Source of the DNA: an uncultured Candidatus Peribacteria bacterium
GTDB lineage: Bacteria; Patescibacteriota; Gracilibacteria; Peribacterales; Peribacteraceae
Assembly (NCBI GenBank): GCA_964534565.1
Contig: CAZHON010000001.1
Span: 36,152-100,151 of the forward strand
Direction: 5' to 3'
Length of the DNA: 64,000 nt
Under the pieces are notes generated by a model. The model searched no databases and had not been told where the DNA came from. It was given only the letters and a program-made list of their open reading frames with translations. Shown in pieces: positions 2,602-6,831 of the stretch (position 1 is the stretch's first letter; each line of letters starts with the position of its first letter). The translations under genes were made by a program, and so were the position numbers.

Positions 2602-2902
2602 GGTCATGGAGACTCCATGACCCCCGTCTGGAGGGGATCGAGTACTCCCCTCTTCTCCAATTTTTACCGAGCCCTGTGTGATGAGGAAAAAAAGTGCGGA
2701 GATTTTTCTCCGTTTGGAAAAAAGTGGAGGGGTGGAGTGGGTCACCGGAGGGGGTGACCAGTGGAGGGGTGACGTTCTCGTGTTGACCAGGGTCACAAAT
2801 CTGCAGACTGACTATAGATGACCCGTGTCGTGACCCTGTTCGCTCTATTCATGATGAACCTTTACTGTAAGCCATTTGGAGGGGCAGTGAACAGGGGTGA
2901 CC
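2602..2902. promoter_or_regulatory. Iteron-like repeat array in a divergent intergenic region
   Basis: A perfect inverted repeat GGTCATGGA-gac-TCCATGACC sits at 2602-2622. TGGAGGGG(TGAC) direct repeats start at 2629, 2724, 2747, 2761 and 2877. GGTCACC/GGTGACC inverted pairs are at 2740-2759, with further half-sites at 2791, 2830 and 2897. Confidence 0.6.
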
Positions 2903-2998
2903 CTCATCATGATCATGGTCAAAGAAGAGGAAGTGGAGACCCTCTTCACGTGCCTCCATTTGAAATGGTACTGTTTGGTCACTCTTTCCTTCCTCTTC

Positions 2999-3628
2999 AT
3001 GCCTGCTTTCTACACGATCAAACAAGCCGTCGATCACACGGGAAAATCTGCCAGCACCGTGCGCCGTTTGGTGCGCGAGATTGTTGCCGACGATAAGCAC
3101 AAAGATCGTGCAGAAATTGAACCCACTCCTGCTGAGGCAAAGAAGATGACGCAGCAGGGCATTCAGTTTGCATGGAAGATCAGTGAGGAGTTGTTGCTTC
3201 GTGAATTCAAAACTCTCTCCGAAACCGCACAGACAAAAACGGCAGGGGAGTCGGAATTGGCAGAGCTTTTGAGGGGCGAGCTCATGAGCAAAGAGAATCA
3301 ATTGAAGACGAAGGACACACAGATCGAGCAACTGGGAACGATCATCACATCACTCAATGAACGTCTGCGAGAGGGGAATGTGCTCATGGCCGCTCTGCAC
3401 CAGCAGATCCAATTGCCACAGCAAACTGCAACGGCGCAGATCGAAGAAGAGCGTCCGACTGAGGTCAAAATTCCCGAGATCAAAGTGATGAAGGCGAAGC
3501 AGGGGAAGCAGAAGGCGATGAACAAGATTCAACCGATGCCAAAGGCCTCTCAAGTGACCCCGGTCACGGCTCCGGTAGGTGCCTCCAAGACGCGAAAGAG
3601 GAGCTGGTTGGCCGTTATCTTTGGATAA
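2999..3628 (+). CDS. Putative HTH DNA-binding protein with a coiled-coil middle and a basic C-terminus
   Basis: I chose an internal ATG of ORF 2897-3628. The N-terminus YTIKQAVDHTGKSASTVRRLVREIV looks like an excisionase/MerR-type helix-turn-helix. A heptad-like region ELAELLRGELMSKENQLKTKDTQIEQLGTIITSLNERL follows. No family was recognised. Confidence 0.45.
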   Translation: MPAFYTIKQAVDHTGKSASTVRRLVREIVADDKHKDRAEIEPTPAEAKKMTQQGIQFAWKISEELLLREFKTLSETAQTKTAGESELAELLRGELMSKENQLKTKDTQIEQLGTIITSLNERLREGNVLMAALHQQIQLPQQTATAQIEEERPTEVKIPEIKVMKAKQGKQKAMNKIQPMPKASQVTPVTAPVGASKTRKRSWLAVIFG

Positions 3629-3673
3629 ACCTCACATATGGCTCAGAAGCGGTAAACGTGGTACAATGAGGAG

Positions 3674-4540
3674 ATGGACATTGAAATCCAAATCCACCGC
3701 CCATTCCTTCTCCTCCTCATTCTGGGGGGATTTGGATGGTTTGTGTATTGGGCAGTCAGCGCGCATCCGCAAGCGAGTGCAGAGGCCCCTGTGGGAGGAA
3801 GCGGCCAATCGCAGGCCGAGGTCGCTATGGAAGCGGAGGAGAGCGTGCGTTCCATTCGCGAGCAGCAAGCAGTCTTAAGCAAGCGAGAGGGGATTTTAAG
3901 AGCGCAATTGGAGCTGCTTTTGGAAGAGAAATTGGATGCCGGCAATGACCCTGCATTGCTCGATCAAATCACCACAGCAACACACAAGCTGGTCGATCTT
4001 TTGGCTGACCAACGGGCTGCGGATGAAGCGCTGAAAGGCTCTCTGCGAGACCTGTGGGAAGCCGAAGGAAACGCGATGCAGTACTCACGATCACAAACGA
4101 CAAGTGACTCAATTTCACTCGAATGGCCGGTCACTCCAGCCCTTGGAATCTCGGCCCACTTCCACGATGCGTCGTACAAGAAACGCTTTGGCATGGAGCA
4201 CAACGCGATCGATATTCCCGTCGCCCAAAACAGTGATGTGCACGCTGCTGCAGACGGCATTGTTGCGAAGGTTTCGGATAAGGGGATGGGCTTCAACTCG
4301 CTCATCATTCAGCACGCAAACGGGTACGCAACACTCTACGGTCACGTGACAAAATTCCTCGTCAGCGAAGGGGAGCATGTGCGAGCAGGGGACATTGTGG
4401 CGCTGTCCGGAGGACGCCCAGGAACACCGGGAGCGGGACTGTTCACAACGGGCTCACACCTGCACTTCGAACTGCACCAAAACGGAACGCCGATCGACCC
4501 TCAGCAGTTCCTGAACATGAGCGAATTGCTGTCACAGTGA
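3674..4540 (+). CDS. M23 family metallopeptidase (LytM domain) with an N-terminal TM helix and coiled coil
   Basis: HNAIDIP...AAADGIV...LIIQHANGYATLYGHV...GEHVRAGDIVALSG...GSHLHFELHQNGTPIDP is the M23 HxxxD / HxH signature. TACAAT lies 6 nt upstream of the ATG. Confidence 0.85.
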   Translation: MDIEIQIHRPFLLLLILGGFGWFVYWAVSAHPQASAEAPVGGSGQSQAEVAMEAEESVRSIREQQAVLSKREGILRAQLELLLEEKLDAGNDPALLDQITTATHKLVDLLADQRAADEALKGSLRDLWEAEGNAMQYSRSQTTSDSISLEWPVTPALGISAHFHDASYKKRFGMEHNAIDIPVAQNSDVHAAADGIVAKVSDKGMGFNSLIIQHANGYATLYGHVTKFLVSEGEHVRAGDIVALSGGRPGTPGAGLFTTGSHLHFELHQNGTPIDPQQFLNMSELLSQ

Positions 4541-5704: not shown

Positions 5705-5944
5705 ATGACAAAACGACCATCAGAAAACAGAGACGAGTCGGACATGCCGGCACGTGTGACGAAACGCTCACTCGAAGCGTTGGGGCAAGAGTTGGGAATA
5801 GTTGGAGGGTATGATTTGCCGTCAGGTCGTGGTGCATTGAGAGATCGATACCGGGATCTACTTTTCATTCAACAAGCACGTGACGAAGGCGATCATCGAG
5901 CTGCCGAGTGGATGAAGAAAGTGATGCCGAATGATGAAGATTAA
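5705..5944 (+). CDS. Hypothetical small protein (79 aa)
   Basis: This is the C-terminal part of ORF 5414-5944 that does not overlap dgt. A hairpin plus T-run follows it directly. Confidence 0.3.
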   Translation: MTKRPSENRDESDMPARVTKRSLEALGQELGIVGGYDLPSGRGALRDRYRDLLFIQQARDEGDHRAAEWMKKVMPNDED

Positions 5945-5952
5945 TTCTTCAA

Positions 5953-5985
5953 AAAAGACCCCCGTTTTTGCAGGAGTCTTTTTTG
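5953..5985 (+). terminator. Hairpin plus T-run (intrinsic terminator candidate)
   Basis: AAAAGACCCCCG-TTTTTG-CAGGAGTCTTTTTT. Confidence 0.5.
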
Positions 5986-6153
5986 AGTCCTCGTTGCCGT
6001 TGGTAAGCACGACGCTTGATCCCTGGTAGTACCAGGTGGGTGGCCGCATCCTAGGACCCACGGGTCGAAGGAGAGTTGGCTTCCCGAGAAGCGAATTAGG
6101 AAAAAAACGTAAGTGCTCCTGACGCGAAACGAAGAGAGATTTATTCTAGCACG

Positions 6154-6831
6154 TTATCGTAAAACACACCCGAGCATGTTGCGTTTTCCATGTTGCACTT
6201 GGTCACGATCTCCACCCCTGTAACTCCACAGAAATTTGTTCTCGCATGAAGTGCATAATTGCACGCGTTCCATGTGCACTTTTTTCACGCCACATTCTTC
6301 GAATTGTGCATCGGCAATTGCACGAAGGTCCGCGTGATTGTTGTGAAAAAATTTCGGATCAATTCCAGGAAGTTCAACGACCGGATTTGTGAAGCCACTA
6401 TGCTCGAGACAGAGTGACGGTGCAGCACCGACAAGGAGCTCACTTGGGTCGACGGTGAACTCCTCCATGAGCTGGGTCACGGTGTGGGGAATGACGCGCG
6501 CGAGAAGACCCTTCCATCCGGCGTGAATCACAGCGGCAACATCTTGCTTCGGCGCGTAACAAACAAAGCTCTGACAGTCGGCGCTCAGTGTGAAGAGTGT
6601 GAGCCCTCGGGTCACCGTGACCTGGGCATCGGCCTGGGTCAGACTCTGTTCATCGGTGGCACGATCAACCGTGACCACTGTTCCTCCGTGGACCTGATGC
6701 AGATGTGACCCGTGTTCCGTTCCAAGTTGAGTCATCGCTTCTTCAAAATTCACATCGTCCGTTTTGTTCCACCACGCGACTGACAGTCGGTCGGAGTAGG
6801 GGAGCAGGTTTGAAAACGGAGTGAGGATCAT
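6154..6831 (-). CDS. pgeF: PgeF/YfiH family (DUF152) purine nucleoside phosphorylase / peptidoglycan editing factor
   Basis: HQVHGGTVV, SADCQSFV, IHAGWKGL, ...C..SC...F.SYR. The conserved H, C and H residues are in the order typical of the family. Confidence 0.85.
   Translation of the reverse strand: MILTPFSNLLPYSDRLSVAWWNKTDDVNFEEAMTQLGTEHGSHLHQVHGGTVVTVDRATDEQSLTQADAQVTVTRGLTLFTLSADCQSFVCYAPKQDVAAVIHAGWKGLLARVIPHTVTQLMEEFTVDPSELLVGAAPSLCLEHSGFTNPVVELPGIDPKFFHNNHADLRAIADAQFEECGVKKVHMERVQLCTSCENKFLWSYRGGDRDQVQHGKRNMLGCVLR

Follow-up and report, generated by a model that had tools for sequence, protein, structure and literature searches.

Among the systems described to date, those closest to the locus treated here include the proteins RacA and RicO, in which a small N-terminal MerR-like winged helix-turn-helix (wHTH) domain is followed by a coiled coil, and which bind short specific sites clustered in one chromosomal region, as well as DNA non-specifically (PMC4914108; bioRxiv 10.64898/2026.03.06.710092). 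A critical arginine is found in the recognition helix of both proteins (R19 in RacA, R18 in RicO), and the ram half-site, TGAC, is read by one arginine (PMC4914108; bioRxiv 10.64898/2026.03.06.710092). RocS, RicO and the Par protein of pSK1 combine a wHTH, a coiled coil and a MinD-like amphipathic helix, of which RacA has only the first two, and all four proteins serve segregation by attaching DNA to the membrane or the pole (PMC11500499; PMC4914108; bioRxiv 10.64898/2026.03.06.710092). A single amphipathic helix is insufficient for membrane binding in RocS and Par, where oligomerisation is needed (PMC11500499). Single-protein DNA-membrane tethers of this kind are a recent finding, so far restricted to Firmicutes, and the authors of the RicO study call their wider distribution open (bioRxiv 10.64898/2026.03.06.710092). 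Here, we describe a 4-kb, largely intragenic array, nearly saturated with the hexamer GGTCAC/GTGACC, which lies beside a gene with a predicted tether-like product (the HTH gene, encoding 209 amino acids) in the core chromosome of an uncultured bacterium of the Candidate Phyla Radiation (CPR), called Peregrinibacteria/Peribacteraceae after the names of its dgt homologues. The array was found in a stretch of 64,000 nucleotides (nt) of contig CAZHON010000001.1, all of which is referred to as the window. We tentatively read it as a set of binding sites for the product of the HTH gene, which would form a membrane-anchored, centromere-like patch, a serious possibility that we place slightly short of probable.

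An exact count gives 66 copies of GGTCAC/GTGACC in the window, of which 26 start within 2740-6710. All of the hexamer statistics refer to this window, which is part of the genome. Dinucleotide-preserving shuffles yield 34.9 +/- 5.9 sites per 64 kb, with none of 100 shuffles reaching 66, and the expectation based on them is about 2.2 sites for the zone and about 33 for the rest of the window, which places the zone at about 12 times expectation. The remaining 60 kb contains 40 sites, or 0.67 per kb, which is approximately the level of chance. These figures agree with an earlier note on this DNA, which had counted 26 sites by eye, against about two expected per 4 kb, and had listed their starts correctly save for two that are off by one (5109, in fact 5110, and 6609, in fact 6610). 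The low background that it described also holds, with the correction that 12000-20000 has five sites rather than four, and an equally high density elsewhere, the circumstance that it had named as fatal to the claim, is not found in the other 60 kb of the window.

When all k-mers are compared, no hexamer is more enriched in the zone (about 9-fold, binomial p = 3e-14) or more locally clustered in the window (26 of its 66 copies in the best 4 kb, p = 6.8e-15) than GGTCAC; the next word not related to it reaches only about 1e-6. The single-base variants of GGTCAC are each only 0-3 times enriched in the zone, and all six bases of the word matter. A GTnAC core of the EbfC/YbaB type was ruled out as the true word, given that AGTCAC, CGTCAC and TGTCAC are not enriched. 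A 5' G is favoured, with GGGTCAC found 11 times in the zone and 5 times outside. The inverted pairs pointed out earlier have no constant spacing. A second, G-rich word that had escaped the earlier note, GAGGGG/CCCCTC, is co-enriched (15 in the zone, 28 outside) and often abuts or overlaps the hexamer, as when GGAGGGG is directly followed by GTGACC, or GAGG by GGTCAC. Given this, the full word may be a degenerate GGAGGGGTSAC(C).

The copies in the zone are oriented as GGTCAC on the plus strand in 16 cases and on the minus strand in 10, and, when GGTCAT is counted too, 36 GGTCAY sites are found in 2602-6710. The 26 hexamers lie in clumps that occupy, as had been claimed, one intergenic region, together with four genes called with confidence (HTH, M23, dgt and pgeF) and not five (Table 1); no hexamer occurs in 5521-6200 or in nnrD, and the next is found only at 8963. 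Short words that override codon choice in all frames are also known from DNA uptake sequences, Chi and the FtsK orienting polar sequences (KOPS). However, these signals are genome-wide, and Chi and KOPS are strand-polarised, whereas the word considered here is at chance outside the 4 kb (40 sites, about 33 expected) and favours neither orientation. Of the roles first suggested, that of an uptake- or recombination-type signal is thus unlikely. A system of the parS/ParB type, also suggested, is not indicated either, since the ParABS system relies on a 16-bp palindromic parS, whereas the hexamer has no constant pairing and no 16-bp palindrome of this kind is present, and the zone genes encode no ParB (ParBc/Srx) domain.

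The cause of this enrichment acts at the DNA level. Within-gene shuffles of synonymous codons in the four zone genes leave 6.7 +/- 2.0 sites (maximum 14 in 1000 shuffles), against 22 observed, which bears out the earlier preference for a DNA-level cause over codon or dipeptide usage. The dipeptide Val-Thr is spelled as the hexamer (GTG-ACC, or GTC-ACn preceded by G) in 13 of 14 cases in the zone genes, but in 14 of 91 elsewhere (Fisher p = 1.7e-8), and the positions at which the protein sequence would allow the hexamer, referred to here as opportunities, are used in 21 of 44 cases in the zone and in 37 of 273 outside it (p = 1e-6). On the sense strand of the mRNA, the sites are split almost evenly (10 GGTCAC to 12 GTGACC), which places the constraint on duplex DNA and not on RNA.

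On the other hand, the zone might be regarded as a by-product of amino-acid and codon composition, given that the hexamer spells Val-Thr in 14 of its 22 genic occurrences, that this dipeptide is about twice as frequent in the zone proteins as in the others (12.3 versus 5.6 per 1000 residues), and that the shuffles still yield 6.7 sites, more than the level of the neighbouring genes. For the same reason, the frame independence asserted in the earlier note is partly untrue at the protein level, even though three frames are used and its examples from dgt (KVTS, MVTD and CDQ) are all correct. However, the observed number exceeds every one of the 1000 shuffles, similar codons are chosen inside and outside the zone for Val, Thr, Gly and His, and the orthologues of the same proteins have just 0-1 sites.

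The orthologues were taken from metagenome loci (designated here by L-numbers), the nearest relatives of the window among them sharing only 48-63% protein identity with it. Used and possible positions were compared with L084, L148 and L085: in the window, dgt uses 10 of 18 opportunities, pgeF 6 of 12 and M23 2 of 8, whereas the orthologues use 0-1 of 9-11, 0-1 of 2-5 and 0-1 of 3-4, respectively. The opportunities themselves are 2.3 times more frequent in the zone proteins, and the extra ones are limited to the lineage of the window, which indicates that the force acted on the amino acids as well as on the synonymous sites.

Foreign DNA, whether as an island or through homologous replacement, was ruled out by the ancestral synteny and the levels of identity. 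The gene order LysM-M23 / S11 / POTRA / GT / nnrD / pgeF / dgt / M23 is kept in the relatives (L084, L085 and L148), and the zone genes are 50-63% identical to their orthologues, values that do not stand out from those of the flanking genes (45-72%). The GC content is flat across the zone, and three independent assemblies from the Sequence Read Archive (L001-L003) match the window at 100% identity along as much as 14.6 kb, which argues against misassembly and also means that they hold no strain-level variation at the sites. Within the 64-kb window, these tests refute the composition, foreign-DNA and artefact explanations, to which we leave next to no probability. A scan of contigs with the dgt alignment, in which the patterns were those of a generic HD domain, returned 80 loci from unrelated phyla, with no close relatives among them; in an exact look-up of the dgt reading frame, the ATG-start version was on record and the long version with a GTG start was not.

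The densest part of the array is the intergenic region 2559-2998, with six hexamers in 2740-2982, accompanied by GGAGGGG boxes, and the density of GGAG/CTCC peaks window-wide at 2531-2970 (18 per 440 nt, versus 5.1 +/- 2.4). The perfect palindrome in this region (Table 1) is a candidate high-affinity or operator site. The regions between the TPR and HTH genes have a mean column identity of 60%, though the genomes share just 45-63% protein identity (alignment of 2559-2998 of the window with 14849-15326 of L084, 1803-2278 of L148, 2191-2665 of L149 and 1245-1739 of L150), and the blocks AGTATAC, TGACCCCCGTTCA, GAGCCCTA..AAAGnCAAGAAA, CATGGACTCCCCCTTCA and ATAAACAAAAAAC are conserved in the window and these four relatives.

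Other functions were considered for this region. A structured RNA was rejected, as the covariation term of RNAalifold is positive (penalising) and Rfam finds nothing there. A CsrA-sponge RNA is not indicated either, with a weak strand bias of GGA/GGAG (10 to 6); the window that contains this GGA/GGAG-rich region also encodes csrA (PF02599, E = 1.8e-25) at 27188-27550. Within the intergenic array, the minus strand at 2697-2712 could form a hairpin, CGGAGAAAAATCTCCG, which resembles a terminator in that a T-run comes after it; it is not conserved in the relatives, and hints at a short leftward transcript over the hexamer cluster at 2740-2900.

The relatives reveal which of the neighbouring elements the array accompanies. 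In L084, the best relative (21 kb), dgt and pgeF are present without a zone, and the top hexamer clusters (GGTCAT/ATGACC, CATGGA, TGGAGG and GAGGGG) surround the HTH orthologue and continue through the 5' part (half) of the TPR/PMT_2 gene on the opposite side, with 16 of 31 GGTCAT sites in 3 kb and 9 of 14 GGTCAT opportunities used by the TPR gene (shuffle P = 0.008). The same pattern is found in L149 (10 observed, 3.8 expected, P < 0.001), and L148, L150 and L151 have clusters of GGTCAT/GGTCAC in the same intergenic region between the TPR and HTH genes. The lineages differ in the last base of the hexamer (C or T) and in the side to which the array spreads. Given that the clusters are found at the same gene but over different neighbours, the array follows the HTH gene and its upstream region, and not the neighbouring genes; the array and the HTH gene are co-located in five genomes.

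A distinct type of explanation is a local mutational or repair bias, such as very-short-patch-type correction or biased gene conversion, that made GGTCAC words within one segment. The near-saturation of the Val-Thr codon pairs (13 of 14) is what directional conversion would produce, and the sites have neither phasing nor fixed spacing, and amino-acid changes were tolerated in housekeeping enzymes. However, the known motif-driving repair (of the Vsr/Dcm type) acts genome-wide, whereas the word is at chance here in the other 60 kb, and the 506-nt stretch of the zone without a confidently called gene contains no sites. The clusters of the relatives, located at the same gene with another sixth base and another direction, fit a pair of protein and site better, and we regard a bias of this type as quite improbable.

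The protein encoded at 2999-3628 belongs to an unannotated family, with 29 word-indexed homologues and 694 clusters at 50% identity in an exhaustive HMMER search; the gene callers put its start at 2909, and the homologues begin at 2999. In the alignment, a conserved N-domain (FLTVKEAAxxTGKSxSSIRR ... GENFAWRISEELL), in which R22 and R23 are invariant and lie in the second helix, is followed by a helix with an invariant LSERLREGN motif (LxERLREGN), a basic low-complexity (disordered) linker, and a C-terminal tail after lysines and arginines. In the AlphaFold (AF2) model, residues 1-75 are predicted to form a wHTH with the order strand-helix-helix-wing (predicted local distance difference test, pLDDT, > 90 in the full-length model, mean 86 for the domain alone), and residues 84-137 form a single long helix (pLDDT > 90). 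The model thus contains a predicted central coiled-coil or oligomerisation region, and the sole sequence matches of the profile in the PDB are the coiled coils of Atg16 and Sir4. The best Foldseek matches are the RacA-DNA complex 5i44, Tn916 Xis, Pukovnik Xis, CbpM, HiNmlR, BmrR and pSK1 Par 8csh, all with E > 1 and template-modelling (TM) scores of 0.5-0.6. Searches of Pfam, PHROGs, NCBIfam and PDB sequences returned nothing usable for family assignment, and weak HTH_17 matches occur in some distant members.

The membrane-targeting sequence of MinD in Escherichia coli is KGFLKRLFGG (PMC5471200). The tails of the family, such as KKGFLSRLFG and KRGFFSRLFR, are close to this sequence and stand at the extreme C-terminus after a basic cluster, and the tail of the window protein, KRSWLAVIFG, keeps the pattern; a short helix is predicted at residues 204-208, with low AF2 confidence. 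On this resemblance, the tail would attach the protein to the membrane.

In comparison with RicO-ricS of Staphylococcus aureus and RacA-ram of Bacillus subtilis, the domains are predicted to follow one another in the same order, the second helix has the invariant R22 and R23, and TGAC/GTCA forms part of the core word. However, those systems have 9 sites (ricS, 18 bp) or 25 sites (ram, a 14-bp palindrome) over 600-700 kb around oriC, whereas here 26 hexamers are packed into 4 kb, adjoining the gene and largely in coding DNA, with an imprint on codons and amino acids. There is, furthermore, no detectable similarity between the proteins, and the locus belongs to a CPR bacterium, while surveys of the known family cover Firmicutes only. 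RocS of Streptococcus pneumoniae and pSK1 Par are likewise similar in their predicted domain plan, and the DNA-binding domain of Par on its centromere DNA (8csh) is among the non-significant fold matches; they differ, however, in that they carry DUF536, which was not detected here. RocS is also thought to bind DNA without a defined sequence, and Par is a plasmid protein, whereas the present locus is chromosomal and syntenic and extends over 4 kb. Membership of a known tether protein family is thus not established.

Homologues of the 209-residue protein are encoded in 62 metagenome loci, the majority of which are of the Planctomycetota type, judged by the names of the homologues of a conserved downstream partner of 495 residues. 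In 27 non-redundant distant loci, the approximately 500 nt upstream are packed with YGGWA, GGTACC, GGTGCC, GGAACC and GGTAGG, and there are also strand-specific CTCCCCT boxes, one of them at the expected position of the ribosome-binding site. The distances between pairs peak at 11-12, 22-24, 33-35, 44-47 and 56-58 bp, which corresponds to a period of 11.25 bp (Rayleigh R = 0.46, 225 pairs, 16 loci contributing), and TGGA and CATG have the same 11.25-bp period in the five intergenic regions of the close clade (R about 0.44). No comparable hexamer zone was found in the coding DNA of 26 longer distant loci, and in L133 (Peregrinibacteria-like, dgt-HTH-M23) a GGTA/TACC cluster is confined to the intergenic region, which makes the spill-over into genes special to the clade of the window, and extreme in the window itself.

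Arrays of short repeats upstream of the gene of their own binder are known from R1 parC-ParR, pBtoxis tubC-TubR and the RA3 KfrA operator (five 9-bp repeats), which are cooperative and autoregulatory and tolerate mixed orientation (PMC7783346, PMC5016525), and phased arrays in this position are a hallmark of parC-, tubC- and KfrA-type centromeres or operators (PMC5016525, PMC7783346). The intergenic array of the window (six hexamers, the palindrome and the G-rich boxes) is similarly located upstream of the gene of the candidate binder, as are those of the 27 distant loci, which have the 11.25-bp period. On the other hand, the known arrays extend over 50-300 bp and are intergenic, the GGTCAC sites are unphased, and no gene for ParM, TubZ or ParA adjoins the array in the window, the neighbours being TPR, M23, dgt and pgeF.

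In the distant loci (L086-L147, e.g., L109 9500-12057, L114 9400-12060 and L125 4550-6546), the HTH homologue is followed by the highly conserved 495-residue protein, and integrase genes are close by in some cases. All 373 homologues of this partner are named hypothetical, and a search returned one weak, sub-threshold match, that of a single copy to Replication initiator protein A (PF10134, E = 4.5e-4). The distant HTH gene, the partner and the array may constitute an undescribed replication or partition module.

Given this match, together with a faint resemblance of an HTH homologue to a model named plasmid replication DNA-binding protein (E = 0.07) and the position of rnpA-yidC, often origin-proximal, 11-13 kb away, the zone could also be an iteron-type replication element, i.e., a chromosomal or relic-plasmid origin or control region with the HTH protein as a replication accessory. 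However, the replication-family matches are all sub-threshold, neither the window nor any of the close relatives has the 495-residue partner, and no dnaA, AT-rich unwinding element or skew switch was seen at the zone. Iterons, moreover, are 17-22 bp in length and intergenic, rather than hexamers spread over 4 kb of coding DNA, and we consider this origin very unlikely. The rnpA and yidC genes flank the replication origin in many bacteria; in the window they overlap at 17941-19619, and a scan of window genes turned up no dnaA.

If the array serves the HTH protein, as we favour, the protein would oligomerise through its coiled coil, and its winged helix-turn-helix domains would dock on GGTCAC, the full form of which is probably the longer, degenerate GGAGGGGTSACC. 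Nucleation would take place at the dense intergenic cluster and the palindrome (2603-2982), after which weaker sites within the neighbouring genes would be filled, giving rise to a nucleoprotein patch of several kb. The MinD-like C-terminal helices, made multivalent through oligomerisation, would hold this patch at the membrane, and the locus would function in chromosomal anchoring, or as a centromere-like site, in a manner similar to that of RacA-ram, RicO-ricS, RocS and pSK1 Par; a likely side effect would be that the gene is autoregulated. The candidate words for the protein are GGTCAC, GGAGGGGTSACC, GGAGGGGGTGACC and the 21-bp palindrome, and a role in segregation or positioning is what the resemblance to the tethers suggests. 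A binding array for the adjacent HTH/coiled-coil protein had already been proposed, and has gained comparative support, i.e., the clusters at the same gene in the relatives, the upstream arrays of the distant homologues and the tether-like domain plan; the binding of GGTCAC words by the protein is what we infer from these patterns.

A number of observations weigh against this reading. The gene sits at the edge of the zone and not at its centre, and the GGTCA sites of the zone have no helical phasing (R about 0.1, the level of noise) and no fixed pair spacing. The stretch 5648-6153 has no GGTCAC, against about three expected at the density of the zone, and both this gap and the empty body of the HTH gene, ahead of its closing pair of sites, would be odd if the number of sites were simply maximised. 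The structural matches are consistently of the MerR/excisionase-type winged HTH, yet are not significant; no Pfam family, DUF536 included, matches the protein at E <= 0.01, and profiles of the full-length family and of the N-domain, searched against all PDB chain sequences, those of RacA (5i44) and Par (8csh) among them, match no characterised tether at E <= 10. The tail of the window protein is also less amphipathic than that of MinD (hydrophobic moment, muH, 0.33 versus 0.48), and the uniqueness of the zone is bounded by the extent of the window. Finally, the periodic word of the family as a whole is YGGWA/TGGA, and not GGTCAC, so that the protein might read YGGWA/TGGA, with GGTCAC belonging to another factor.

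This last point leads to the possibility that the zone is an array for a different DNA-binding protein, with a nucleoid-associated, silencing or decoy (titration) function, and that the HTH protein reads only the intergenic (Y)GGA repeats for autoregulation. The imprint on the DNA would be explained equally well, and the zone is asymmetric about a gene whose own body is free of sites. However, the GGTCAY clusters coincide with the HTH gene in five genomes, despite spreading over different neighbours, and GGTCAC overlaps or abuts the intergenic G-rich boxes, which suggests one composite word. The Pfam scan and the synteny, in addition, reveal no other DNA-binding gene in the conserved neighbourhood. 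A second factor is therefore unlikely in our view, though it deserves more weight than a repair bias.

Whatever its function, the zone is a clean case of a non-coding constraint on DNA that overrides synonymous choice, and it has visibly reshaped the amino acids of conserved enzymes (dgt and pgeF) within one lineage. A more specific proposal is that of a regional anchor or centromere of a CPR bacterium, bound by a RocS/RicO-like tether that either resembles the Firmicute family by convergence or is a very remote relative of it, and whose word is nearly saturated over 4 kb of housekeeping genes; this is conceivable, but we hold it to be rather doubtful. A literature search found no paper that links Peregrinibacteria with tethers of the RocS/RicO type. 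If the tether interpretation is true, the principle would be extended to a far-removed region of the bacterial tree, in a CPR bacterium with a reduced genome, and the combination of wHTH, coiled coil and amphipathic helix would emerge as a widespread principle of partition without a nucleoside triphosphatase, with Planctomycetota-type homologues using phased 11.25-bp arrays. The zone would then be, to our knowledge, the densest cluster of candidate sites known for such a tether system, and the compactness of the locus suits in-vitro work on organisms that cannot be cultured.

Table 1. Positions of the hexamer zone, its sub-clusters and the surrounding genes in the window.
Feature	Positions	Strand	Remarks
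Hexamer zone	2740-6710		26 exact GGTCAC/GTGACC
Leftward weak tail of the array	1030-1146		2 composites as found in the relatives, GGAGGGGnCCATGAC(C), within 5' half of TPR gene
Perfect 21-bp palindrome	2603-2623		GGTCATGGAGaCTCCATGACC; near-identical copy, one arm truncated, in corresponding intergenic region of L084; L148 and L150 have variants
Densest coding sub-cluster	4847-5520		10 hexamers in 674 bp within dgt
Terminal sub-cluster	6610-6710		4 hexamers in 101 bp, including inverted pair GGTCACcGTGACC
TPR protein gene	672-2558	-	divergent from HTH gene
Intergenic region	2559-2998		440 bp, between TPR and HTH genes
HTH gene (209 residues, no Pfam domain)	2999-3628	+	2 hexamers (3554, 3562)
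M23 peptidase	3674-4540	+	2 hexamers (4129, 4340)
dgt-like deoxynucleoside triphosphate triphosphohydrolase (HD + HD_assoc)	4532-5647	-	10 hexamers and 5 GGTCAT
Stretch without confidently called gene	5648-6153		506 nt, 0 hexamers
pgeF/YfiH-like (Cu-oxidase_4)	6154-6831	-	6 hexamers; zone ends at 6710 within gene
nnrD	6828-7643	-	0 hexamers

With regard to the genes of the zone, the gene callers are split over a reading frame of 63 or 66 residues, on opposite strands, in 5648-6153, where Rfam also finds nothing. The relatives have an ion-transport gene between dgt and M23 (L084 11142-12071, L148 3729-4637, L149 4131-5072) that is not in the window, and L084 has an extra gene of 392 residues between M23 and the HTH gene (13017-14195), which is also not in the window, so that the zone genes are more tightly packed there than in the relatives.

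The gene content of the window includes 23S and 5S rRNA, rpoB, tRNA synthetases, rnpA-yidC and csrA. The match to 23S rRNA, at 42643-46139, is 3497 nt long, against a model of 2925 positions, which corresponds to one or more insertions of about 570 nt, and 23S rRNA insertions are often seen in CPR bacteria. The 5S rRNA is at 46284-46398, and the Rfam scan found no 16S rRNA in the window. A protein of 1404 residues encoded at 28339-32553, with the S-layer-homology (SLH) domain as its sole Pfam match, and a CAP/SLH protein at 62950-63987 suggest S-layer-anchored surface proteins. Finally, ARAGORN predicts a tRNA of undetermined identity at 544-621, whose anticodon has four bases (tcca), implying that the anticodon loop is enlarged; it adjoins the tRNA-Trp(cca) at 367-442 and reaches 56.6 bits with the tRNA model of Rfam.

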